The notes: a model not told the origin generated them from the sequence alone. A DNA stretch of 64,000 nt from an uncultured Chloroflexia bacterium (GCA_963712745.1 CAVQJC010000017.1:128001-192000), one strand, 5' to 3'; positions 29,793 through 49,965 are shown, numbered from the stretch's first letter. Numbers and translations: made by a program.

Positions 29793-29967
29793 GTCGCGTG
29801 GTGGCGCAACGCACCGCACCCCCTCTGAGGAGAGCCGGGGGATCGGCCACGACGTTGGACGCAGTACCGCATCTCGCTCGAGACGCCCGAGTAGCCCCCG
29901 CCGACTCGGCCGCCTGCGGCGCTTGCTGATCAACGGGGTGAGGGCCCGATAGCCCGGCTTGCGCGCA

Positions 29968-30010
29968 GCCATGGCGGCGACGACCGGACATCAGCCGTTC
30001 ATGGCGGTTC
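29968..30010 (+). repeat. array core element copy 1 (degenerate)
   Basis: GCCATGGCGGCGACGACCGGACATCAGCCGTTCATGGCGGTTC. Confidence 0.75.
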
Positions 30011-30090
30011 GGGTCGTCCTGGGCTAGTCCGGCCAGCCCACGTTCGAGCCACGCGGCTGGGCATACGTCGGACCGGCCGGGCCCTCTACG

Positions 30091-30411: not shown

Positions 30412-30693
30412 TTCTGCCTCCTACCGCGTGGTGTCCGTGCGGACACGCAGACGTCGCGGCGAAGTCAGAGTAGGGCCCGCGTGGATGATGTCAACGACGG
30501 GCGGACGCCCGGGACCATCAGTGAACGCGATGGCATGTACATCGCAGCCCGTCCCCGTCCCTCTTGCGCCGGTGCTGACGCAGAACGGCCGACGCTCAGA
30601 CCGACACGTCCCGGTCCGCGTCGATGCCCAGGGCCAACGCCCCCTGCCGGTAGCCCAGCGCCTCGGGGGCCGGACGGCCCGGACGCGTGCATT

Positions 30694-30738
30694 GCCATGG
30701 CGGTGACGACCAGACATCACCCGCTTCACGTGGCGATT
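30694..30738 (+). repeat. array core element copy 2
   Basis: GCCATGGCGGTGACGACCAGACATCACCCGCTTCACGTGGCGATT. Confidence 0.85.
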
Positions 30739-30786
30739 TGGCGGCATCGTCTGCGAGTGCCGTAGACGCCCGCGAGAGAATCGTGT

Positions 30787-31739: not shown

Positions 31740-31815
31740 CGGATGCTCCGCATGCCCGCGCTGCGCCTGTCGAGAGGCTGGCCGCAGCTCCGCGCCCCGG
31801 TCCCCAAGGAACATG

Positions 31816-31860
31816 GCCATGGCGGCGCCGACAAGAGATCTCCCTCTATTCATGGCGGTT
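31816..31860 (+). repeat. array core element copy 3 (degenerate)
   Basis: GCCATGGCGGCGCCGACAAGAGATCTCCCTCTATTCATGGCGGTT. Confidence 0.8.
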
Positions 31861-31901
31861 TGGCATCGCGGGTTGATGGACAGCCGCGAGAGAATCATGG
31901 G

Positions 31902-31979
31902 TAGCGGGAGGCAGCGAGACGCGGTCCACACCCTGGCCGCCTGGACCGCGCCGAGCCACTGGCGAACCCGGCCCGCCTA
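31902..31979 (+). ncRNA. c-di-GMP-II-like riboswitch (copy 2)
   Basis: GCGGGAGGCAGCGAGA-CGCGGTCC..GGCCGCCT-GGACCGCG-CCGAGCCACTGGCGAACCCGGCCCGC; perfect inner stem. Confidence 0.75.
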
Positions 31980-31995
31980 GCAGAGGGGGTAGGCG

Positions 31996-32555: not shown

Positions 32556-32600
32556 GCCATGGCTGCGACGACCAGACATCGCCCTCAATGCGTGGCGGTT
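32556..32600 (+). repeat. array core element copy 4 (degenerate)
   Basis: GCCATGGCTGCGACGACCAGACATCGCCCTCAATGCGTGGCGGTT. Confidence 0.8.
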
Positions 32601-32603
32601 CGG

Positions 32604-35739: not shown

Positions 35740-35755
35740 ACCTGGGTCCCGCCTG

Positions 35756-35800
35756 GCCATGGCGGCGACGACCAGACCAAACCCGCTATTCATTATGTTT
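35756..35800 (+). repeat. array core element copy 5 (right end diverged)
   Basis: GCCATGGCGGCGACGACCAGACCAAACCCGCTATTCATTATGTTT. Confidence 0.85.
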
Positions 35801-36957: not shown

Positions 36958-36964
36958 ATGCGTG

Positions 36965-37009
36965 GCCATGGCGGCGACGACGAGACCAAACCCGCTATAC
37001 ATGGCGATT
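36965..37009 (+). repeat. array core element copy 6
   Basis: GCCATGGCGGCGACGACGAGACCAAACCCGCTATACATGGCGATT. Confidence 0.9.
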
Positions 37010-37057
37010 CCGTGCGGCCCACTGGAGCTTCGTGGACGCCCGCGAGAGAATCGTCGT

Positions 37058-37134
37058 AGCGGGAGGCAATGACGCGCGGCCCCAGCCCTGGCCGCCTGGA
37101 CCGTGCCGAGTCACTGGCGGACCCGACCCGCGCT
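37058..37134 (+). ncRNA. c-di-GMP-II-like riboswitch (copy 3)
   Basis: GCGGGAGGCAATGA..GGCCGCCTGGACCGTGCCGAGTCACTGGCGGACCCGACCCGC. Confidence 0.75.
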
Positions 37135-37149
37135 TGTGAGGGGGATGTC

Positions 37150-38201: not shown

Positions 38202-38516
38202 ATGGCGGACCCGCTGGAGCCTGACACGCGGCCGGACGAGCCGCACATCACAAACCCATCGATGCGCGAGGCGGAAGAGCCGGACCTAGCGCGCGTGGCC
38301 GAGGAGTGGAGGCGAGAGACACGCCAAGCGAAGGACCAGCGGAACGCCGAAACCGAGGAGTGGCTGAAGGCGTTCGAGGCCAAGCATGAGAACCCGAGGG
38401 ACACCTTCCTCGGGCTGCTACTGCATGGTTGCTGTTGGTGGTCCCTCATGAGAATGGCGTGCGCCACCCTGCTGGTCGTGTTCGTCGCAGCTTGGGCCCG
38501 GCGTGCGAGGGGGTAG
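38202..38516 (+). CDS. small hypothetical protein with C-terminal TM
   Basis: Charged N-terminus, hydrophobic C-terminus; ends just before core copy 7. Confidence 0.45.
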   Translation: MADPLEPDTRPDEPHITNPSMREAEEPDLARVAEEWRRETRQAKDQRNAETEEWLKAFEAKHENPRDTFLGLLLHGCCWWSLMRMACATLLVVFVAAWARRARG

Positions 38517-38545
38517 CACCTCATCGCGCCGCCTCGGCTACCTGC

Positions 38546-38590
38546 GCCATGGCGGCGATGACCAGACATAACCCGCTATTCATGGCGATT
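38546..38590 (+). repeat. array core element copy 7
   Basis: GCCATGGCGGCGATGACCAGACATAACCCGCTATTCATGGCGATT. Confidence 0.92.
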
Positions 38591-38609
38591 CTGGAGTAGT
38601 GGTCAGTGG

Positions 38610-39791
38610 CTAGCCCGCCTCGGCGGGCAGGAACTCGAACGAGTCGGCGATGGAGAGCCAGCGGTCGTCGAAGCCGTGGTAGCCAAAGCAGCCAATCAGA
38701 GCTTCGGGGCCGTCGGTAGCGAGAGCGGTCTCGAAATCGATCAAGAACGTCGAGTTGTACGTCGCCCTGCCGGTGTCCGCTCGGGTGACGTAGTCGATGC
38801 GGTGAGACGGGCCGGCCGGCAGCATCAGCTCCGACACGGTCGGCCCCTCGGCCAGCCCAGGGTCGCCTCTCGCGTGATCGAGTGCGCCGGCGAGGACGTC
38901 ATCGAGCGAGCTGCCGACGGGCAGATCCGTGGATTGGACCAGGCACGTCGTGGCCGGCCACCCATCGGGCTCGACCGGTCCGAACACCAGGGCGTGGAAC
39001 GCGTACCCCTGGTCCGACAGCGCGCTCAGTTGCTCCAGCATCGTCGCGGTCGTATCGACCCAGCGCGGATGTGTCTGACGGACGAGGTCAAGGTTCTCCT
39101 CCGCGCTTGCCTCGTTCGGGTCAAGGATGACCCAGTCGTCCGGAAAGGTCAGTGCAAATCCTGGAGCGATAGCCTCCAGGCGACCGCCCATGCCGGCCGT
39201 GTCGCGGGGGCGGAGCCACTCGAGTGACTCGGCGATAGCGCGCCACCTATCCGGGGTCGGATGCGGACCTTCACACGTGAGGATGACGCTCCAGGCATCA
39301 CCGCCGATCATGAAGCCCTCGCGGTAGAGCGCCACCTCGTCCGTGTCTGGCGGCACGACCTGCCATCGATAAGTGACGGCGGGGCCGGCCGGGAGCTCGG
39401 TCTGCGAAATGCCCTCGTACGCATGGACACTGGGCTCTGCCCTGATGGCCGCATCCAGCCCTCCGTAGAACCCCGGGTCGAGGACCTCTTCTCCGTCCCA
39501 CGGGACCACGTCCAGATCGCAAGCGTCGCCCGATGGCGACATCAGGAAGAGTTCTGACTCAGTCTCCTCATCGAGCAGGCCGACCTGCGCGCCGGCGGCC
39601 TGCAACTGGGCGTCGAGTTCCACGGTGAGGTCGAAGGCGATCCAATCGGTCGGGATCGATACGGCGATGCCGTGCCTGGGCATCTCCACGCGCCCACCGA
39701 ACCACGGTGGAGGCTGCGACTCTGACGCCACCACCCCAGACCCCAACGACAGAACCATCAGTAGCGCCAGCAACCCGACTCGCCTGCCCAT
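38610..39791 (-). CDS. family-II secreted protein, tandem domain
   Basis: Signal peptide; GGRVE..P.DW..LPAGP..LTC..DRW..IAES twice; ends DRWLSIADSFEFLPAEAG. Confidence 0.8.
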   Translation of the reverse strand: MGRRVGLLALLMVLSLGSGVVASESQPPPWFGGRVEMPRHGIAVSIPTDWIAFDLTVELDAQLQAAGAQVGLLDEETESELFLMSPSGDACDLDVVPWDGEEVLDPGFYGGLDAAIRAEPSVHAYEGISQTELPAGPAVTYRWQVVPPDTDEVALYREGFMIGGDAWSVILTCEGPHPTPDRWRAIAESLEWLRPRDTAGMGGRLEAIAPGFALTFPDDWVILDPNEASAEENLDLVRQTHPRWVDTTATMLEQLSALSDQGYAFHALVFGPVEPDGWPATTCLVQSTDLPVGSSLDDVLAGALDHARGDPGLAEGPTVSELMLPAGPSHRIDYVTRADTGRATYNSTFLIDFETALATDGPEALIGCFGYHGFDDRWLSIADSFEFLPAEAG

Positions 39792-39799
39792 AACGTCTC

Positions 39800-39846
39800 C
39801 ATCCTCCGCGCCCCGCGCCGCGGGTCAAGGGCCGGACGGCCCGACG
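39800..39846 (-). promoter_or_regulatory. conserved minus-strand promoter module
   Basis: TTGACC-N16-GAGGAT a few nt before ATG 39791. Confidence 0.55.
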
Positions 39847-39891
39847 GCCATGGCGGCGACGACCAGACCAAACCCGCTATTCATGGCGATT
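39847..39891 (+). repeat. array core element copy 8
   Basis: GCCATGGCGGCGACGACCAGACCAAACCCGCTATTCATGGCGATT. Confidence 0.92.
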
Positions 39892-39960
39892 TCGGAGTCG
39901 CGTTCGCGCCAGCGTGCTGACTGCGTTGGTGACCCCTCACGCTTGGCCTGATGCCCGCGC

Positions 39961-40420: not shown

Positions 40421-40428
40421 CATGCATC

Positions 40429-40473
40429 GCCATGGCGGCGACGATCAGACATAATCAGCTGTACATGGCGATT
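40429..40473 (+). repeat. array core element copy 9
   Basis: GCCATGGCGGCGACGATCAGACATAATCAGCTGTACATGGCGATT. Confidence 0.9.
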
Positions 40474-40522
40474 CTCGATTGGCGCTCGAGAGCCGATGGA
40501 CGCCCGCGAGAGAATCGCAGGT

Positions 40523-41150: not shown

Positions 41151-41198
41151 TCGCATCGCGTCGCCTCGGCTGCTTGCGGCTCAGGATCGGCGTGCATA

Positions 41199-41243
41199 GC
41201 CACGGCGGCGACGACCAGACCAAACCCGCTATACATGGCGATT
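41199..41243 (+). repeat. array core element copy 10
   Basis: GCCACGGCGGCGACGACCAGACCAAACCCGCTATACATGGCGATT. Confidence 0.92.
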
Positions 41244-41260
41244 CCTGTTAGCGAGTCGGG

Positions 41261-42394
41261 TCAGGTCGGCAGTTCGGCCAGCACGTCCTCGATGGCCATC
41301 CCACCGCTGCCACTGACGATGAACAGGACACCGCGAACGGTATACATGAACGACCACGTCGAACCGTCATCCGCCTCCTCCGCGTCATCCGTCCAGACGG
41401 TACGTTCACCGTAGGTCCGAGTCGGCCACTCCGAGAGCGGCGGGGTCACAGAGGTGCCCATCTCGCTGCGCATGATCTGTACCAGTTGCTCCATCACGAC
41501 TACGGGCGGGACTCCAGCAACTCGGATGGCCTCAACGACGTACTGCTCCGGCACCGACCGGTCAGCCGTACGCGCATGTGCCACCTGCAGGTCCCTGAAC
41601 TCCTGTCCGAGGTCGGAGATCAAGCGTCGGAACAACCGGCGAGCGTCTTCCTCGGTCAGCACCAGAGACGAGCTGCTCTCGACGGACAGCGGAGTATCGC
41701 CGATCACGTGCGGCAGCAGGGAGATCACCTGGTCGGACGGGAGCGGCAGGGTCTCGACGGTCTCGGCGATGGAGAGCCAGTCGTCGTCGGGGCGTTGGAA
41801 AGCTGAGCACGTCATCGTCAAGATGTCGCCGCCGACGTCGATCAGATACATCGTGACGGGGCCCCAGACGTCACGGTCGTAGGCATTCTGGGCGGTCGCT
41901 CGAAGTACCAGACCGGGACCGGTCGGCACGTCCACCGGCATCGGCGGGTCGGCATCCACCATCGACTCCGCGTCCACCATCGTCTGGTACAGACCTTCGG
42001 CGAAGGCATCGAGCCGCCAGCCTTCCCCGAGCCTTGGATAGAACAAGCAGCTCTCCGTCTCCGCGAGGGAGCACACTGAGGACGAGAGGTCCATACCCAA
42101 TAGCGGGAAGGATCCCTCAGCGGCCAAGAGCGAGAGGTTCATGTGCAGGCACGAGAGCCCAGCTGCAGTCAGTCCACCATCAGGCGAGTCCATGGCGCGG
42201 ACCTGTGAGTCGATGTCGGCGCCAGGGTCGAACGCCACCCAGCCCTCGGGGAGGGTGACCGCGAAGCCGTACTCAGCGATCTCCACGCGCCCGCCCATCC
42301 ACGGCGGAGGCGAGGCATCCTCCGCCCGCGCGGACCCGAATACAGTCGCCAGCAGACTGACCACAAGCAGCGCCACGCTCGCCAGCTGTCGCAT
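41261..42394 (-). CDS. secreted fusion protein: family-II + family-III domains
   Basis: GGRVE..GFAVTLPEGW..DDWLSIAETVE then LLPHVIGD..EAIRVAG..IEDVLAELP. Confidence 0.8.
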   Translation of the reverse strand: MRQLASVALLVVSLLATVFGSARAEDASPPPWMGGRVEIAEYGFAVTLPEGWVAFDPGADIDSQVRAMDSPDGGLTAAGLSCLHMNLSLLAAEGSFPLLGMDLSSSVCSLAETESCLFYPRLGEGWRLDAFAEGLYQTMVDAESMVDADPPMPVDVPTGPGLVLRATAQNAYDRDVWGPVTMYLIDVGGDILTMTCSAFQRPDDDWLSIAETVETLPLPSDQVISLLPHVIGDTPLSVESSSSLVLTEEDARRLFRRLISDLGQEFRDLQVAHARTADRSVPEQYVVEAIRVAGVPPVVVMEQLVQIMRSEMGTSVTPPLSEWPTRTYGERTVWTDDAEEADDGSTWSFMYTVRGVLFIVSGSGGMAIEDVLAELPT

Positions 42395-42464: not shown

Positions 42465-42509
42465 TCCATGGCGGCGACGACCAGACATAACCCGCTATAC
42501 ATGGCGATT
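42465..42509 (+). repeat. array core element copy 11
   Basis: TCCATGGCGGCGACGACCAGACATAACCCGCTATACATGGCGATT. Confidence 0.92.
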
Positions 42510-42530
42510 CGTACCGTCCGCTCGGCCGAG

Positions 42531-43136
42531 CTACGCTCCGGCGGGCAGGAACTCGAAGGTCGCGGCGATGGACAGCCAGTCATCCTCGGGTGCTCCTCGC
42601 GAACAGCCGAGGAAGTACCACCGGTGTCCATCACCGAAGAGGTACATAGCGTATCGGTCAGCGGTCTCCAGCGACGCCCAGTCGGGGTACCCGCCGGGCT
42701 CGCCCCAGAAGTTCGCGTCTGAGGGCACCAGGTCCATGGTGACCCGTCCGACGCGTCCAGCCGGCAGGTCGATGACCGCGCCGGTGACGTTCCTGGCGGC
42801 GAGACTGTCGTCCCATCGCGAGACCAACGCATCGAGCCAGTCGTCAATCGACTCGACCGGCAGGACCGGCTCAACGACGGACGAGTCAAAGACCTCACAG
42901 TAGCCACCCGGCCCCGAGGAGGTCAGGCCCGGCAAGTACGGGGGGTGATCCAGCATCCCAATGACCTCCCACCCGTCGGGGAAGGCGATGGCGATTCCCA
43001 GATCCGGGAAGGTCCGGATGGTGGCGGCAGGCTGCCCCGTCACCTCCGGGCTCGCCGACGGTGACTGCGCCGTGATGGCGCTCGACGTCGTGGCTAGGAG
43101 ACACGCCACCGCAACCGAGATGATGAGCCGTCGCAT
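42531..43136 (-). CDS. family-II secreted protein
   Basis: Signal peptide; GIAIAFPDGW..LPAGRVGR..LGC..DDWLSIAATFEFLPAGA. Confidence 0.8.
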   Translation of the reverse strand: MRRLIISVAVACLLATTSSAITAQSPSASPEVTGQPAATIRTFPDLGIAIAFPDGWEVIGMLDHPPYLPGLTSSGPGGYCEVFDSSVVEPVLPVESIDDWLDALVSRWDDSLAARNVTGAVIDLPAGRVGRVTMDLVPSDANFWGEPGGYPDWASLETADRYAMYLFGDGHRWYFLGCSRGAPEDDWLSIAATFEFLPAGA

Positions 43137-43218: not shown

Positions 43219-43265
43219 GCCATGTACGGGCGATGACCAGACCAAACCCGCTATTCATGGCGATT
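43219..43265 (+). repeat. array core element copy 12
   Basis: GCCATGTACGGGCGATGACCAGACCAAACCCGCTATTCATGGCGATT. Confidence 0.9.
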
Positions 43266-43377
43266 CTCGCTTGGGGCGGAGTTCGCAGCAACGGCTCGTG
43301 GGACGCCTGCGCCTCGAGAATCGTCTACCTGGTACAGGCGGGATCGACTCGTCAGCGTGAGAATCGAGGGAGAGACC

Positions 43378-43899
43378 ATGGGAACGATCAGGATCGGCAT
43401 CATCACGCTCCTCACCATCGGCCAGCTGGCGGGCTCAGCGGTCAGTGTCGCAGCGCAGGACGATGAAGCCGTCGTCGTGAGCGGGGGCATGAGTCCGATT
43501 GGCGGCGCGAGCGTGCCGTGCGAGCTGGAGGAGGATTTCACCGAACTCGACGACGGCACGGCCAGCTGGACCTGGTGCTTCGGTCTCGTGATGGACGATC
43601 CACGGCTCACCGGCGACGGCTCCGTCGTCATGGCTGAGCGGGCGTACGACGGCTTCGGCCTGATCTCCTCGAGGGTGGAGATAGCCAACGAAGGAGGGTC
43701 GTGGTCGGGCAACGGCACCAGGGTCTTCATCGACGGAGATCCGGGGATCGATATCGAGCAACTCGTACTCACCGGGGCCGGTGGATATGGCGGCCTGACG
43801 GCCATCCTCTATGCCGATCCGGAGTTCGGCTTCCGCGGATTGGACTCGTGGAACGGCGTCATCATCTCGGGCGAGATGCCAGGACTACCTGCCGAGTAG
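43378..43899 (+). CDS. family-I secreted protein
   Basis: Signal peptide; DDPRLTG..GGSWSG..LTGAGGYGGL..GVIISGEMP. Confidence 0.8.
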   Translation: MGTIRIGIITLLTIGQLAGSAVSVAAQDDEAVVVSGGMSPIGGASVPCELEEDFTELDDGTASWTWCFGLVMDDPRLTGDGSVVMAERAYDGFGLISSRVEIANEGGSWSGNGTRVFIDGDPGIDIEQLVLTGAGGYGGLTAILYADPEFGFRGLDSWNGVIISGEMPGLPAE

Positions 43900-43905
43900 A
43901 CCCCT

Positions 43906-43957
43906 CGCGCCACCTCCGCCTCGGCGGGCAGGAACTCGAAGGTCTCGGCGATGGAGG
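43906..43957 (-). pseudogene. short 3'-end remnant of a family-II gene
   Basis: Encodes SIAETFEFLPAE immediately after the stop codon of the 43958 gene. Confidence 0.6.
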
Positions 43958-44557
43958 CTATGGCAGTTCGGCCAGCACGTCCTCGATGGTCGGTTCGGTC
44001 GGTGCGTCGGGGTCAGAGCCAACGCGACCAAGCCGCACTCTGAACAGGACCTCGCCCTTCGGGTAGAGGTACTCGATGAAGCGGTCGTCGGCGCCATCGA
44101 AGGTAACGACCACGACGCGGCGGTCACCGATGTCCTGCCAGTCCATAGCGGCCACTGGCAGTTGGTCGGCGACAGCTTGGGACTCGCGTCGCAACCCCTC
44201 GAACACGCCTGCCCAGAAGTCTGCCGCCTGAGCACCCACGATGCGTGTCGCCTCGATACTCAGGAACCGGTCTCCTTCCGGGTGAACTCCATAGCCGCCT
44301 GCGGCTCTGACATCCTCCGGCTCCAGTCCGAGTGGCACCAAGACATCACGCCAGCCTGCGGTCCACTCCGCATCGGCGGAAGAGACAGCCGAGAAGTCCA
44401 GGATGGACAGGTCGATGTCCCCGACCTGTGACGGGATGATGGACGCCAAGTCATCGGGTGCGAACGGCGGCGTGGCCTCCGCTGACGGCGACTGAGCCAA
44501 CGCCCCAGACCCCAGCGACAGAACCATCAGCCCTGCCAATAGCCCGGCTCGCTTCAC
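43958..44557 (-). CDS. family-III secreted protein
   Basis: KRAGLLAGLMVLSLGSG signal peptide; IIPSQVGD..EATRIVG..IEDVLAELP. Confidence 0.78.
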   Translation of the reverse strand: MKRAGLLAGLMVLSLGSGALAQSPSAEATPPFAPDDLASIIPSQVGDIDLSILDFSAVSSADAEWTAGWRDVLVPLGLEPEDVRAAGGYGVHPEGDRFLSIEATRIVGAQAADFWAGVFEGLRRESQAVADQLPVAAMDWQDIGDRRVVVVTFDGADDRFIEYLYPKGEVLFRVRLGRVGSDPDAPTEPTIEDVLAELP

Positions 44558-44584
44558 GGCTCCACCCCTCCTGCGGATGCCGCT

Positions 44585-44633
44585 CATCCTCCGCGCCCCG
44601 AGCCCCGGGTCAAGGGCCGGACGGCCCGGCGGC
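44585..44633 (-). promoter_or_regulatory. conserved minus-strand promoter module
   Basis: CATCCTCCGCGCCCCGAGCCCCGGGTCAAGGGCCGGACGGCCCGGCGGC. Confidence 0.55.
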
Positions 44634-44640
44634 ACGCTCA

Positions 44641-44685
44641 GCCCTGGCGGCGACGACCAGACATAACCCGGTATTCATGGCGATT
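44641..44685 (+). repeat. array core element copy 13
   Basis: GCCCTGGCGGCGACGACCAGACATAACCCGGTATTCATGGCGATT. Confidence 0.9.
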
Positions 44686-44733
44686 CCGTGCGGCCCACTG
44701 GAGCCTCGTGGACGCCCGCGAGAGAATCGTCGT

Positions 44734-44810
44734 AGCGGGAGGCAAAGACGCGCGGCCCCAGCCCTGGCCGCCTGGACCGTGCCGAGTCACTGGCGGACCC
44801 GACCCGCGCT
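44734..44810 (+). ncRNA. c-di-GMP-II-like riboswitch (copy 5)
   Basis: Identical to copy 3 except AATGA>AAAGA. Confidence 0.7.
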
Positions 44811-44825
44811 TGTGAGGGGGATGTC

Positions 44826-45359
44826 ATGCGTACGTTGCGGCTGTCCCTGGTCGGGACGGTCATCGTGATGCTGCTCGGCGGGCTGGCTGGAGCGGTGCTT
44901 GGCGCAGGACGAGGAGGAAGCGCCCGTATGGGTGACCCTCCTCGCGCAGGAGAACTGCCGGATGGAGGCGGACCCCGGCACCTACGAGCCAGGCGCAGGA
45001 CGCGCCAAGAAGATCCGCGACCTGCCCCTCGCTTGCGACCTCACCTACAGCGATGCCCGCCTTAGCGGGCCGAGCCACATGCTCTACAACGAGGACTGCT
45101 TCGAGTCGGGCATCTGCGTCGGGTGGGGGACCATCGGATCGACGGCTCCGACGGATCGTGGACCGGGTGGTGGCACGAGATCGACGACGAGGACGACGAT
45201 ACGAGCTTCCACATCGTGCTGACCGGCGACGGCGGTTACGAGGGACTCACCGCCATCATCTACTCACTCGGGGTCTGGGAAACGTTCCCCGACGAGTACG
45301 GTGTCATCTACCGGGGCGATCCGCCGCCAGGTCCCGAGGTGCTGTTGACTGCTGAGTAG
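44826..45359 (+). CDS. family-I secreted protein with two compensating frameshifts (~44900, ~45131)
   Basis: MRTLRLSLVG.. / AQDEE..SDARLSG..YNEDC / DGSWTG..LTGDGGYEGL..GVIYRGDPP. Confidence 0.7.
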
Positions 45360-45586
45360 CAGATCACCAGGCGACCGCGCCACGCTCACCGCCGCGAGCG
45401 AGATCCATACAGGGATAGACACCGATACGACGGTCATCTACCCCTGCTCGAGCTGAGCCGCACCGACATCGACCCCACGGCGCCCTGAGAACAGCACCGC
45501 CACCCTGGAGCAGCACTTCCCGCTGCCGCGTTCATGACCTCCGCCTCTTGAACCGAGCGGTACTGCTGTGGCCTCATACCCATCTG

Positions 45587-45663
45587 AGCGGGAGGCGATG
45601 AGGCACGGCCCACACCCTGGCCGCTGGGACCGCGTCCGAGCCACTGGCGAAACCGGCCCGCGC
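45587..45663 (+). ncRNA. c-di-GMP-II-like riboswitch (copy 6)
   Basis: GCGGGAGGCGATGA..GGCCGCTGGGACCGCGTCCGAGCCACTGGCGAAACCGGCCCGC. Confidence 0.7.
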
Positions 45664-45679
45664 AGCAAAGGGGGATGTC

Positions 45680-46579
45680 ATGCGGACGTTGCGACTGTCC
45701 CTGTCGGTGACGGTCATCTTGGCACTGCTGAGCGGACTGGGCAGTGCGGTCGTGGCTCAGTCGGAGGAGCCGAACCAACAGAGCGCGTGGCCGAGCCTCA
45801 CGACGTCCCTCGAGTACGGCGAAGACCCAAAGCAGGTTATCCATGCCTACGAGCCAGAGCCTCGGACCGCGCCACGGCCCGCCGTCGTCTTCTTCTCCGG
45901 CGGCGGATACGACATCGGGGATCCGCTGTGGGTCCTCGACTCTGCACGCCAGATGGCCGAGGCTGGCTACGTGGCCTTTGCGGCGGGCTACCGCCTCCAC
46001 GATCCGTCGACGGGCACGAACCCATGGCCGGCACAACTCGAGGATGCCCAGGCAGCGGTCCGCTGGATCCGCGCTCACGCGGCGGACTACGGCGTCGACC
46101 CCGACCGGATCTGCGCCCTCGGCCATTCCTCCGGTGGCCACCTCGCGTCGCTGGTCGGCATGACCGATGCCCGCGACACGAGTGACCCTGACATGGCGGG
46201 CATCTCGAGCCGCGTCACCTGCGTCGTCAGCGTCTCGGGCGACGTCGACCTCACGATCGGCAACCCGTACCCGGAGCAGACGGCGGTCTACGAGAGCCTG
46301 CTGGGCGCCAGCTACGAGGATGACCCCGCCGCGTGGCGTGCGGTCTCGCCCGCCTACCTCGTCGATGCGGAGACCGTGCCCATCCTCATCATCCACGGCA
46401 CCCGCGACACCAACGTCGACGTTCAGGCGTCCCGGAACCTGGCGGCAGCCCTCGCCGAGGTCGACCGGGAGTTCGTCTACGCCGAGATAGACGCCGACCA
46501 CTTCGACATCTTCGAGCAGCCCCCGACCCTGCCGCTCACCGAGACGTTCCTCGTCTACCAACTCCATCCAGAGGAGTGA
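45680..46579 (+). CDS. secreted alpha/beta hydrolase (esterase/lipase)
   Basis: MRTLRLSL signal peptide; SGGGY, WPAQLED, GHSSGG nucleophile, HGTRD, H. Confidence 0.9.
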   Translation: MRTLRLSLSVTVILALLSGLGSAVVAQSEEPNQQSAWPSLTTSLEYGEDPKQVIHAYEPEPRTAPRPAVVFFSGGGYDIGDPLWVLDSARQMAEAGYVAFAAGYRLHDPSTGTNPWPAQLEDAQAAVRWIRAHAADYGVDPDRICALGHSSGGHLASLVGMTDARDTSDPDMAGISSRVTCVVSVSGDVDLTIGNPYPEQTAVYESLLGASYEDDPAAWRAVSPAYLVDAETVPILIIHGTRDTNVDVQASRNLAAALAEVDREFVYAEIDADHFDIFEQPPTLPLTETFLVYQLHPEE

Positions 46580-46762
46580 TGACCGACCGGTCGATGGCGG
46601 CTCGATGGACGGCGAACCCAGAGCGAGTTGAAGAGATACGCGGCGCCAGCGCAAGCGCACCCGGCTGGAGCGTGGGCCGAGACCAAGGAGTAGGCGAGAG
46701 CTAGGAGTCGGCGACCAGCCGTGCCCACCGGCTGATTCGCTCGCGCCGCCTCGGCTGCCTGC

Positions 46763-46829
46763 GCCATGGCGACGACGACCAGACGTCGTACGCGTGGCGA
46801 CCAGACCAAGCCCGCTATACATGGCGATA
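46763..46829 (+). repeat. array core element copy 14 (internally duplicated)
   Basis: GCCATGGCGACGACGACCAGACGTCGTACGCGTGGCGACCAGACCAAGCCCGCTATACATGGCGAT. Confidence 0.85.
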
Positions 46830-46865
46830 CGCCGGGTCGGCAGGTCAAGCGCGATACGGCCGCGC

Positions 46866-47840
46866 CTACTCCTCGGCGGGTCGGAACTCGAACGTCTCGG
46901 CGATGGACTGCCAACGATCCTGAGGGGCTGCAACCCCGAAGCAAGTAAGGGAGTAGTAGGACGTCCCGTCGGTCACGAGGTAGGCGCTCCTCTCGAGGTT
47001 CGCGCCCTCATCCACGTCATCGATGCGGACAGCCGAACCGCTGGGCAACTCGATGGCGGTCGTGGCTAGCGTCGCAGGCGCCGACCGGAACATGGCGATG
47101 AACGCCTCCACGAAGCCCTCGAGGTCGCTCCACGCCACGTCGGCGTGGCGTCCGTGGGGCCAGTACCAAGCACGGCAGGTGTCCTCGCCCGGCATGAACG
47201 CCAGCATCACCATCTGGCCCGTGGTGGTCGGCCTGTCTTCCCGCGTGAATACGACTGACCAGTCCTCGGGGAGGGTGAGCGCGAAGCCCGCTTCGGGCAC
47301 CCAGCCTCGCAAGCGACGTTCCAGGTTCGTCGGCTGGTCCTGCCGAAGCGGGTCGATAGCGATCGAGTTCGCGATAGACAGCCAGCGATCGGTCGGCGGG
47401 TCGGTGCTGGTGCAGGTCAGCACGCGATAGGACGAGCCGACCTCCCAGTAGTAGCTCGTCACCAGGTACACACCATCGGGCCCATAGTCCTGCCACGCCT
47501 CGGTGCGAAGGGCCGCTCCCTGCGGGGTCGCGACTGTCACGGCGGAGGCGGCGGCAGGACCGCCTCCTTGCTCGACCAACGCGGCCAGGCAAAGGGTCTC
47601 ATCGGTGTCGTACAGCGTGAGCAATGGCGTCACATCGCCTCGCGTGGTCAACTCGTACGGATCGCCGGGCGTGGCCTCCCAGAGGTGCGGCGGGACGACC
47701 CAGAGCCCGGAGCCCAGGCTCTCGACACGACCTGCGGACCAGAACGTCGCTTCGGTCGTTGGTGTCGGCGACTGCGCGGCCACACCATTCGCAACCATCG
47801 CGAGGGTCAGCCCGGCCAGCATTCCAGATCGTCTGCGCAT
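46866..47840 (-). CDS. family-II secreted protein, tandem domain
   Basis: Signal peptide; LTC..DRWLSIANS then GFALTLPEDW..LPSGSAVR..LTC..DRWQSIAETFEFRPAEE. Confidence 0.8.
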   Translation of the reverse strand: MRRRSGMLAGLTLAMVANGVAAQSPTPTTEATFWSAGRVESLGSGLWVVPPHLWEATPGDPYELTTRGDVTPLLTLYDTDETLCLAALVEQGGGPAAASAVTVATPQGAALRTEAWQDYGPDGVYLVTSYYWEVGSSYRVLTCTSTDPPTDRWLSIANSIAIDPLRQDQPTNLERRLRGWVPEAGFALTLPEDWSVVFTREDRPTTTGQMVMLAFMPGEDTCRAWYWPHGRHADVAWSDLEGFVEAFIAMFRSAPATLATTAIELPSGSAVRIDDVDEGANLERSAYLVTDGTSYYSLTCFGVAAPQDRWQSIAETFEFRPAEE

Positions 47841-47898: not shown

Positions 47899-47905
47899 AT
47901 GCATC

Positions 47906-47945
47906 GCCATGGTGCCGACGACCAGACGGCGTACGCCTGGCGAGT
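47906..47945 (+). repeat. array core element copy 15 (short terminal variant)
   Basis: GCCATGGTGCCGACGACCAGACGGCGTACGCCTGGCGA. Confidence 0.75.
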
Positions 47946-48020
47946 GGAGGAGCTCGAGACGCGAAGACGCGGCACCCCTCCACGGAATGCCGCGCCGTCG
48001 TCCGCGAGTGACTGCCGGAA

Positions 48021-48998
48021 TCAGCCCATGGTCAGGGCCATCACCGCCTTCTGCGCGTGGAGCCGGTTCTCTGCCTCGTCGAAGGCCGCCGACTTGGGCC
48101 CGTCGATGACCGCGTCGGTCACCTCCACGCCACGGTCCGCCGGCAGCGGATGCATCCAGATGGCGTCGTCCGCGGTCATGGCCATGCGACGCTCGTCTGA
48201 GATCCAGTCGGTGTACTTGGACGCGATCTTGGCGCCCTCCTCGTCGGAGACTCCCAGCATGTGAGCACCCCACGACTTGGCGTACACGATGTCGGCGCCG
48301 TCGAAGCCGGCGTCGAAGTCGTCCAGCTTCTCGAACGCCCCGCCGGCCCGGGCCGCGTTGGCCTCGGCCTCAGCCATGATGTCCGGCATCAGCTCGAACT
48401 CGGGCGGATGCACGAGCTTGACGTCCATGCCGAAGCGGGTCGCGGCCAGCAACAGCGACTGCGGCACCGAGATGGGCTTCTGGTAGCTCGAGGCGTAGGC
48501 CCAACTGATGGTGATCGACTGGCCCTTGAGGCGGCCCTTCTTCTCGATGATGGTCATCAGGTCCGCGAGGATCTGGAAGGGGTGGTAGATCTCGCACTGC
48601 ATGTTGAGCACAGGCACGCGGGATGCCTCCGCCACGTCGCGGATGTACTGGTTGCCCTCACCGAAGGTGACGTGCCGGATGGCGATGCCGTCGTTGTAGC
48701 GGCCCAGGATCTCGCCGATCTCCGTGGCCGTGTCGCCGTGCGCGATCTGCGTGGTGCGGCTCTCCATGAACATGCCGTGCCCGCCGAGCTGGGCCATGCC
48801 CGCCTCGAACGAGGCACGCGTGCGTGTGCTGGAGAAGAAGAAGAGCATGGCCAGCGTCTTGTCCAGCAGGTAGGCGTGGCGCTCGCCCAGGGCACGCTTG
48901 CGCTTGAGCTCGAAGGCCACGTCCAGCGCGGTCTCGATCTCCTCGTTGGTCCAGTCCGACAGCGCGATGAGGTCGCGGCCACGGAGTCCGGTCTGCAT
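48021..48998 (-). CDS. carbamoyltransferase, YgeW/knotted-OTC-like
   Basis: SSTRTR, HPFQ, SWAYASSYQKPISVPQS (YgeW-type loop), HPLPAD, EAENRLH. Confidence 0.8.
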   Translation of the reverse strand: MQTGLRGRDLIALSDWTNEEIETALDVAFELKRKRALGERHAYLLDKTLAMLFFFSSTRTRASFEAGMAQLGGHGMFMESRTTQIAHGDTATEIGEILGRYNDGIAIRHVTFGEGNQYIRDVAEASRVPVLNMQCEIYHPFQILADLMTIIEKKGRLKGQSITISWAYASSYQKPISVPQSLLLAATRFGMDVKLVHPPEFELMPDIMAEAEANAARAGGAFEKLDDFDAGFDGADIVYAKSWGAHMLGVSDEEGAKIASKYTDWISDERRMAMTADDAIWMHPLPADRGVEVTDAVIDGPKSAAFDEAENRLHAQKAVMALTMG

Positions 48999-49008
48999 GA
49001 TGCGCCCC

Positions 49009-49965
49009 TTACTCGGCCTTGCCCAGGATGAGGGTCAGCAGCGCCATGCGCATGACCACGCCGTTGAAGGCCTCGACCCAGTAGCGGCCGAAACGCGTCT
49101 CGTCGACGTCGGGAGTCAGCTCGTCCATGCGCGGCAGGCTGTGCAGCACGAAGGCATCACGCTTGGCCTTCTCATGGAGCAGCTGCAAGTTGACGCGGTA
49201 CTCGACCGGCGTCAGGCCCTTCTCGACATCCTTCTCGTCCACGCGGCCCTTGGTGTAGTCGGCCTGCACCACCGGCTCCATGTAGATGACGTCGGCCTCG
49301 CCGATGACGTCGCGGATGTCGCCGACCTCACGGTAGTAGGTGGAGCGCTCGTCGAGCTCGGCCTTGAACTCGGGCAGCAGGCTCATCTCCTCTGGGCCGA
49401 TGATGATGGCTTCCATGTCGAATCGGGACATGGCGTAGAGGATCGAGTGCATGGTGCGCATGCGCATGTCGCCAACCAGGATGAGCTTGAGCCCGTCGAG
49501 CGTGCCCTTCTCCTTCCAGATGGTGTAGAGGTCGGTCAGCACCTGGGTGGGATGCTCGCCCCAGCCGTCGCCGCAGTTGATGACGGGCACTGACGACCAC
49601 TTGGCAGCCTCGTGCGGCGCACCCTGCATGTAGTGCCGGATGGCGATGACGTCGCCGTAGTACTCCAGCATGTGGAAGGTGTCCTTGATCGACTCCATGT
49701 AGAAGTCGCCGGCGCGGGTCATCTTGGCGTCACTGAAGCCGAGTACGTGGCCACCGAGCCGGTGCATGGCGGCCTCGGTCGAGAGGCGCGTGCGCGTGGA
49801 CGGCTGGTAGAAGGCGGTCAGCAGTGTCTTGTCGGAGAGCAGGTCGGTATTGCGGCGATCGCGCGCGATGGGAGCGAGGTCGTCACAGACCTGGAAGATG
49901 CGCAGATACTCGTCGCGGGTCATGTCCTTGAGCGACAGGATGTCGCGGCCCTTGAAGCTTCTCAT
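49009..49965 (-). CDS. aspartate carbamoyltransferase-like enzyme
   Basis: FYQPSTRTRLS, PVINCGDGWGEHPTQ, LHSLPR, NGVVMRMALL. Confidence 0.82.
   Translation of the reverse strand: MRSFKGRDILSLKDMTRDEYLRIFQVCDDLAPIARDRRNTDLLSDKTLLTAFYQPSTRTRLSTEAAMHRLGGHVLGFSDAKMTRAGDFYMESIKDTFHMLEYYGDVIAIRHYMQGAPHEAAKWSSVPVINCGDGWGEHPTQVLTDLYTIWKEKGTLDGLKLILVGDMRMRTMHSILYAMSRFDMEAIIIGPEEMSLLPEFKAELDERSTYYREVGDIRDVIGEADVIYMEPVVQADYTKGRVDEKDVEKGLTPVEYRVNLQLLHEKAKRDAFVLHSLPRMDELTPDVDETRFGRYWVEAFNGVVMRMALLTLILGKAE

Follow-up and report, generated by a model that had tools for sequence, protein, structure and literature searches.

What maintains a long run of mostly single, unrelated genes that are set apart by copies of one short DNA element, all of them lying on the same strand? 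This question is raised by a 64,000-nucleotide stretch of an uncultured Chloroflexia bacterium, here called the window (contig C17:128001-192000 of genome G000, which has 4.2 Mb, 68% G+C and an estimated completeness of 84.6%), and in particular by the sequence at 38546-38590, GCCATGGCGGCGATGACCAGACATAACCCGCTATTCATGGCGATT, which is one copy of a 45-nt element that we name E. For this element, the most fitting description is that of a boundary site in integron-like cassette arrays, which lack an integron integrase and are closed by a dedicated terminal site, T. The relatives with which G000 was compared are metagenome bins labelled Chloroflexia or Candidatus Limnocylindrales, with genus-wide counts made over 49 genomes.

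Element E consists of a left block L, GCCATGGCGGCGACGACCAGAC, four variable bases and a right block R, CCCGCTATNCATGGCGATT. A profile built from 78 copies and run against the contigs of G000 detects about 15 sites between 29967 and 47946 of the window, all on the plus strand, and a 30-nt pattern allowing up to three mismatches has eight matches in the window against none in 100 shuffles. The recurrence noted in a preliminary description of this DNA is borne out, at a level far above chance. Alignment of 77 distinct copies from 11 genomes has revealed that the core of L, GGCGACGACCAGAC, is almost invariant, while the housekeeping DNA of the same genomes differs by 15-27%; strong sequence constraint acts on E. 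The variable tetranucleotide is the least conserved part (CAAA in 28 copies, ATAA in 13, ATCA in 9, ATGA in 6 and others in 21), and among the 11 complete copies of the window it reads CAAA in five, ATAA in four and ATCA or ATCG in two. The element is present in 17 of the 49 genomes of the genus and occupies four loci in G000 (on C17, C7 and C10, with a mini-array on C1), to which two solitary degenerate copies are added at C4:198554-198597 and C20:287469-287512, in both cases with a variant riboswitch about 45 nt downstream. A reading of E as coding sequence (MAATTR... on the plus strand, MNSGLCLVVAAMA... on the minus strand) was rejected, the wobble positions being the most conserved and the minus-strand frame carrying a stop codon in 9 of 77 copies. 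An apparent parallel change of the two CATGGCG heptamers, with four cases against 1.2 expected, was also dropped, as two of the four derive from one duplicated cassette.

Between the sites there is usually a single gene, on either strand. The encoded proteins include SRPBCC, cupin, ABC-F, hydrolase, rhodanese, GNAT, Kelch, ECF sigma factor, RTX and methyltransferase types, about 70% have no Pfam match, and 66 of the 132 cassette proteins are singletons upon clustering. Plus-strand cassette genes mostly encode a signal peptide, end in a tail termed D15 and stand behind variant riboswitches of the cyclic diguanylate class II (c-di-GMP-II-GCG/GAG), while those on the minus strand largely belong to one secreted family ending ...DWLSIAETFEFLPAEA and are preceded by a leader element, F, the reverse complement of which contains TTGACC and GGAGGATG. 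Arrays of different species occupy common loci, namely beside hisA, beside an RpiB-like gene with MarR and methyladenine glycosylase genes and, as in the window, beside two genes of the ornithine carbamoyltransferase (OTCase) type. Nonetheless, same-locus arrays of different species have few cassettes in common.

The polarity and the ends of the arrays were surveyed in 17 array stretches from 11 genomes, containing 112 E and 16 T sites. All sites of an array lie on one strand, and since this holds regardless of gene direction, a role of E at the DNA level is indicated. The terminal site T consists of L followed, from the first base after ...GACCAGAC, by RTCGTACGCSTGGCG, beyond which the flanks are unrelated between loci. 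The divergence of E and T hence starts at the base after the shared ...GACCAGAC, which is also the junction of arm and spacer when T is written as an 11-7-11 site, GACGACCAGAC - GTCGTAC - GCCTGGCGA, with partly symmetric inner arms (CCAGAC / GYCTGG). A T site ends 14 of the 17 arrays, always at the same end, with its distinct 15-nt right half conserved at these unrelated loci, and never more than one further cassette follows it. The same arrangement of L and T beside housekeeping genes has been found on nine metagenome contigs, one IS110 fragment being seen there, and a search for T, though not for E, in 49 other genera of the family (120 genomes) gave no match. Directly after an F element and L on contig C1 of G000, three tandem 22-nt T-type units (GACCAGACGTCGTACGCGTGGC) occur at 113290-113360, which looks like an empty, reiterated terminal site. 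In the window, a composite of L, one such unit and R precedes one cassette and the final T (Table 1), and this is the product expected from the entry of a cassette at the second GACCAGAC of a tandem T.

Single cassettes transfer between loci and between species. In genome G014, cassette 6 of array a equals cassette 1 of array b at 99.3% identity with unrelated neighbours, and two cassettes of the window array match two on C7 at 98-99%. Between species, in non-orthologous arrays, G014 array a shares its cassette 4 with G171 (93.2% identity, 1301 nt) and its cassette 2 with G170 (96.2%, 548 nt), although the housekeeping flanks of these species pairs are only 73-85% identical. A cassette orthologous between C7 of G000 and G014 (84% identity) is the last before T in G014 and lies eight cassettes from T in G000, with its homology stopping at GACCAGAC; its position fits growth of the arrays at the T end.

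We would give close to an even chance to a reading in which an undescribed integron-like system uses E as its cassette site and T as its terminal site, with site-specific recombination acting on both in trans. Under this proposal each cassette would comprise one gene, as a rule, with its own leader and in either orientation, having R at one end and L at the other, and every array would be closed by T. A recombinase supplied in trans would exchange strands at the point after ...GACCAGAC. What we infer here are the exchange, its crossover point and its enzyme; the anatomy of the arrays, their polarity and terminal site, and the diversity, turnover and single transfer of their cassettes are observed. 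Recombination of E with T would insert a cassette at the end of the array and regenerate T, that of E with E would delete or release cassettes, and homologous recombination between the many copies of E would then blur the junctions. The enzyme may be host XerC/XerD or an unrecognised protein. In its fuller form, as a new cassette capture system in Chloroflexota (Limnocylindria-type lineages of soil and sediment) that has a sequence-specific 45-bp site E, a terminal integration site T, no IntI and cassettes with a riboswitch or leader of their own, and that is served in trans by XerC/XerD acting on non-dif sites or by an unrecognised recombinase, the proposal is advanced only tentatively. Literature searches at the level of titles and abstracts, including Limnocylindr* or Chloroflexi combined with integron or cassette, gave no description of such a system among the papers listed, the Chloroflexi search yielding general integron papers only.

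The search for an enzyme was made in G000 and five other E-bearing genomes, for chosen recombinase families. Of the site-specific recombinases, those similar to XerC and XerD alone were found throughout the six; in G000 their genes lie at C4:215177 and C4:255936, and both are also present in the five other genomes. Serine recombinases were found in three, and IS110-family genes in four, of five E-bearing genomes, other tyrosine recombinases are fragmentary and not shared, and the only recombinases within cassettes belong to IS21 and IS110 insertions. The sole large serine recombinase gene of G000 (C1:7391-8800, L037) is split over two frames and is probably broken.

Several observations weigh against the proposed system. 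No recombinase gene was found beside T or the array start in the four arrays of G000, in 13 arrays of ten other genomes or on the nine metagenome contigs, none of the families compared is confined to E-bearing genomes, and XerC and XerD occur in E-free genomes too. All genomes used are incomplete metagenome bins (58-95% complete), and because the six bins compared for recombinases are 78-88% complete, the absence of a family from them is weak evidence. The variable spacer of E is not flanked by arms with dyad symmetry, and the right arm that resembles that of T is 12 nt, instead of 7 nt, away from the left arm. Circular or excised cassettes were not seen in four public DNA runs, searched as Logan contigs that are fragmentary and mostly 200-900 bp long; the best public DNA runs contain at most 22% of the sampled words, no RNA run was listed, and the joints listed fall in riboswitches or other repeats with short sides. 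Lastly, the end of identity is not fixed in nine junction pairs, which represent about eight recent exchanges: it falls before E in one, at the start of D15 in one, at the first CATGGCG in two, at GACCAGAC or the end of T in one, at or after the second CATGGCG in three, and is unresolved in one. This scatter weighs against a precise recombinase acting alone, since such an enzyme would give one point.

Homologous recombination between copies of E, D15 and F clearly acts here, and it may be the whole story for the exchange of E with E. A rival explanation of the locus builds on this, holding that E is a protein-binding or otherwise selected intergenic repeat which provides portable homology for ordinary recombination or gene conversion, by which cassettes would be swapped, duplicated or acquired from relatives, with no dedicated recombinase. 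Besides the scattered breakpoints and the lack of an associated recombinase, it accounts for two inter-species transfers in which the E copy of one side, or of both, was not included, and for cassette fusions at the microhomology CGCCTCGGC, 9 nt that D15 has in common with the 3' end of a minus-strand gene and at which one fusion is joined. It leaves unexplained, however, the single orientation of the 128 sites, the distinct half of T that ends arrays at unrelated loci and the composite site, and it names no function for the near-invariant GGCGACGACCAGAC. Moreover, 45 nt is short for efficient RecA-dependent exchange. This explanation is the foremost rival of the proposed system, and somewhat less probable than it.

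Another possibility is that E is a transcription signal of the cassette genes, either as a promoter or operator, a bidirectional terminator or an insulator. Many copies lie 20-50 nt past minus-strand stop codons or after the D15 tail of plus-strand genes, and others about 45 nt upstream of riboswitch-led genes, as such a role would have it. Yet E sits in convergent, divergent and tandem junctions alike in the window, of which the divergent ones (5/13) need no terminator and the convergent ones (4/13) no promoter. The variant riboswitches offer a further comparison. There are 47 in G000 (RF03170, E-value <= 0.001), of which 32 exceed the gathering score and four lie in the window; 15 of the 47 belong to the four arrays of E or neighbour its two solitary, degenerate copies, and at the 32 located elsewhere the E profile finds nothing, inspection of 16 of these upstream regions also revealing no E. 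The distance of E to the F leaders and to a box upstream of the riboswitches is variable, no U-tract follows the hairpin that E can form, and an Rfam search at E gave no family, the best match having an E-value of 0.2 and 20 bits against a cut-off of 50 bits. Strict one-strand polarity would likewise be unexpected for a terminator or operator, and a transcriptional role is considered improbable.

The preliminary description had taken E for a Xer/dif-type site, reading the bottom strand of 38546-38590 as an XerC arm, an 8-bp spacer and an XerD arm, AATCGCCATGA-ATAGCGGG-TTATGTCTGGT (11-8-11), that host XerC/XerD would recognise through its likeness to dif. Letter for letter, the string is correct, and the statement that about half of the copies have TTTGG in place of TTATG is true for the window (the five complete copies with CAAA), the share across the 11 genomes being 28 of 77. 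The presence of XerC-like and XerD-like genes, as the only recombinases common to the six genomes, speaks for this reading, as does the TTATGT of the copies with ATAA, which equals the start of the XerD arm of a candidate dif. In dif sites the arms are constant and the spacer is variable. The candidate, ACTTCCGATAATGCAAGTTATGTAACAT (ACTTCCGATAA-TGCAAG-TTATGTAACAT), is a single site in G000 (C10:83909-83936, L026) that recurs in exactly one copy in 32 of the 49 genomes and varies almost only in its 6-bp spacer; it was taken as the native dif on the strength of this single copy number, the constant arms and the variable spacer. When the comparison is run, the arms of the best E variant match it at only 6/11 and 7/11 positions, the spacers differ (8 against 6 bp), and T shows no likeness to it, while the two proposed arms match each other at 6/11. 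The supposed XerD arm begins within the most variable four bases of E, so that TTATG occurs in 13 of 77 copies, with TTTGG as the commonest variant and TGATG in nine. Conservation does not lie in the proposed arms but peaks outside them, the conserved element being wider than the 11-8-11 core and its best block, GGCGACGACCAGAC, falling half outside that core.

Proximity to dif, the counterpart of the nearness to ter which the preliminary description proposed to check, is seen for part of the arrays. Those at the his locus are 25-72 kb from dif in four genomes, a proximity attributable to synteny, but others are far from it, about 1.09 Mb in G024, and the 452-kb contig of the window has no dif. 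The GC skew of four contigs is weak and noisy, and neither the direction nor the terminus of replication is assignable from it. Considering also that the same Xer genes occur in E-free genomes, recognition of E through likeness to dif is very unlikely. The broader idea that XerC/XerD or a related enzyme acts in trans retains its footing in the lack of an array-side recombinase and in the Xer genes of all six genomes, and gains nothing from sequence likeness. What endures of the preliminary description is that E behaves as a cassette-boundary, recombination-type site; its Xer/dif and hairpin particulars are not supported.

The hairpin particulars concern the dyads GCCATG..CATGGC and GCGG/CCGC with a 4-nt bulge, from which recognition of E as a folded single strand, in the manner of attC or repetitive extragenic palindromic (REP) sequences, had been thought possible. 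Both dyads are real and make up the minimum-energy DNA fold of 38546-38590, a predicted hairpin of 7 + 4 bp with a TATT bulge (-10.8 kcal/mol, z -2.7), and T folds into a longer one. In two other typical copies, however, z is only -0.9 and -0.3, and no covariation is detected over the 77 copies: 86.1% of cells are paired, the shuffles giving 85.9% and being at least as high in 179 of 500 cases, and two compensatory cells were found where 2.8 are expected. The putative loop is the best conserved part of E, and changes break pairs, indicating that the fold is a by-product of conserved letters or is at least unsupported by variation. A longer dyad, ATCGCCATG..CATGGCGAT, had been reported for copies 9 and 12; it is present at 40426-40474, and these copy numbers are not mappable with certainty.

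The enzymes that would act on such a folded strand were also looked for. By inspection, the E consensus contains no inverted RYYYAAC/GTTRRRY boxes, with one central near-match (ACATAAC / ACCAAAC) that has no inverted partner. No IntI (TIGR02249) exceeds the cut-off in E-bearing genomes, the best match of G000 reaching 84.9 bits against the required 265. The single IntI above the cut-off among the 49 genomes (483.7 bits, C10:96075-97019) belongs to G177, a genome without any E match. The Y1 HUH transposase family PF01797 has no match in G000 at its 84.6% completeness, and E, restricted to four arrays and two solitary sites there, is not dispersed in the manner of REP sequences. Despite the resemblance of the arrays to attC clusters, the action of E as a folded strand for an integron integrase or a HUH enzyme such as a REP-associated tyrosine transposase (RAYT) is the least probable of the explanations, given the missing covariation, boxes and enzymes. 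In G177, the repeats beside IntI (L027, 6900-19900) end in boxes of the GTTAGGC/GTTGGGC type, and this locus looks like a canonical integron unrelated to E.

Among known systems, the integron is the closest comparison. To our knowledge, no other system that accumulates and reshuffles single-gene cassettes is well understood; integrons need IntI and a structure-specific attC for it. IS1111-type elements are known to target attC. Clusters of attC sites lacking an integron integrase (CALINs) are named in PMC7923331, and IntegronFinder is the subject of PMC4889954. As in chromosomal integrons and CALINs, the E arrays are long, one-directional series of a short site between mostly single, diverse genes of largely unknown function, with several arrays per genome, high turnover between related species, a distinct end site (T being functionally like attI) and insertion sequences that target the repeat. 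Unlike in those systems, E-bearing genomes have no IntI, E has neither R''/R' boxes nor structure-preserving variation and is conserved in sequence, above all where attC has its variable loop, the cassettes have their own leaders (riboswitch or F) and face either way, neither integrase nor promoter is found beside T, and the sister genome G177 has a canonical integron with different repeats.

Insertion sequences of the IS110 family have inserted at an identical position of E, between CCCGCT and AT, in two genomes. The insertions, which split E between CCCGCT and ATTCATGG, are located at L015:15245-16720 in G022 and, on the reverse strand, at about 960-2240 of L016 in G013. The left end of the E-targeting element contains GACCCGCTATGCGG, a mimic of the target, which we take to be what the guide segment of an IS110 bridge RNA would look like. 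In G000, a loose pattern search for the ends of such elements gave noise only; IS110-family genes lie 2.8 kb from the solitary E-like copy on C4 and 3.3 kb from the mini-array on C1.

Other systems share fewer traits. Plasmid dif (pdif) sites are dif-like, and their orientation alternates around the modules that they bound. In Acinetobacter, pdif modules are reportedly moved by host XerC/XerD in trans and are shuffled between replicons; they resemble the E cassettes in being small accessory-gene modules that lie between short sites of the recombinase type and do not encode a recombinase themselves (PMC6449649, PMC7399989, PMC13141974). The E and T sites differ from them in having no likeness to the native dif and in lying all in direct orientation, within arrays that are chromosomal, much longer and provided with a terminal site. 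Integrative mobile elements exploiting Xer (IMEX), such as the CTX phage, integrate at dif itself via host XerCD. They have in common with the proposed system the integration by host recombinases in trans and the possibility of tandem accretion at one site, whereas each genome has its E/T arrays at three to four loci other than dif, with a T that does not resemble dif. REP sequences are dispersed in hundreds of copies and are associated with RAYT transposases. Like these and the bacterial interspersed mosaic elements (BIMEs), E is a short, intergenic and imperfect palindrome often located just past stop codons; in contrast to them it is bound to arrays apart from the two solitary copies, and no Y1 transposase was found in G000.

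If the integron-like system proposed here is real, it would constitute a second, unrelated cassette system, one that has a site defined by sequence and a terminal one for docking and encodes no integrase itself, and would imply that this architecture evolved more than once, as an independent invention of the integron principle. Should E serve only as a homology anchor, the arrays would still offer a clear natural example of cassette exchange between species. In either case, genes for secreted proteins of unknown function are concentrated in the arrays and turn over quickly, dozens of them standing behind variant riboswitches, in an abundant uncultured soil lineage.

The features of the window are collected in Table 1.

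Table 1. Sites, leaders and tails of the cassette array, in window coordinates.
Feature	Position	Strand	Basis
E copy that opens the array; R has a short deletion	29967..30013	+	Profile match C17:157967-158013
E copy	30693..30741	+	Profile search
E copy, diverged; riboswitch-led plus-strand cassette next	31815..31863	+	Profile search
E copy	32556..32603	+	Profile search
E copy, right end damaged (CATTATG)	35755..35793	+	Profile search
E copy, about 45 nt upstream of riboswitch 37053-37137	36964..37012	+	Pattern and profile search
c-di-GMP-II-GCG variant riboswitch leading a plus-strand cassette gene	37053..37137	+	Rfam match
One of 5 D15 elements of the window; conserved 3' tail of plus-strand cassette genes	38508..38545	+	Repeat family D15
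E copy of the finding (L, variable ATAA, R)	38545..38594	+	Profile match C17:166545-166594, E-value 2.6e-17
Element F, leader of minus-strand cassette genes, one of about 10 in the window	39797..39846	-	Repeat families D3, D11
E copy	39847..39895	+	Pattern and profile search
E copy with longer dyad ATCGCCATG..CATGGCGAT	40428..40477	+	Profile search
E copy	41198..41247	+	Pattern and profile search
E copy	42466..42511	+	Pattern and profile search
E copy, left end damaged	43229..43269	+	Pattern and profile search
E copy	44641..44688	+	Pattern and profile search
Composite site: L, one 22-nt T-type unit (GTCGTACGCGTGGCGACCAGAC), R	46762..46830	+	Sequence and profile search
Site T that ends the array (L + GGCGTACGCCTGGCG); unrelated flank and OTCase genes beyond it	47904..47946	+	Sequence
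Further variant riboswitches	31898-31982, 44729-44813, 45582-45667	+	Rfam match

Eight other fetched stretches contain 29 more of the variant riboswitches, almost all inside arrays and all in the orientation of E, and six riboswitches clustered on contig C5 (76-113 kb) have another conserved upstream element and no E. We know of no ligand assigned to these variants, and the papers found on them give no more than a mention. A long-range pairing of F with E was considered and rejected, the spacing between them varying by 0-14 nt.

Additional aspects of the cassettes and their surroundings have been noted. The minus-strand genes at 38610-39791, 41261-42394, 42531-43136 and 46866-47840 encode a paralogous secreted family whose members carry a domain repeat ending DDWLSIAETFEFLP(A/V)E in one or two units; the family has no Pfam match and counts 14 members in the arrays compared. 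The segments 43242-44662 and 44685-46763 are fusions of two cassettes each in which the intervening E has been lost, and the gene from 44826 onward is truncated. Directly past T there are two adjacent genes of the aspartate/ornithine carbamoyltransferase type (48021-48998 and 49009-49965), followed by a gene for a pyridoxal phosphate (PLP)-dependent enzyme. In G014, a heliorhodopsin gene (L014:2083-3153) is located 3 kb upstream of an array start, with an IS21 pair (IstA/IstB) between this gene and the first E.
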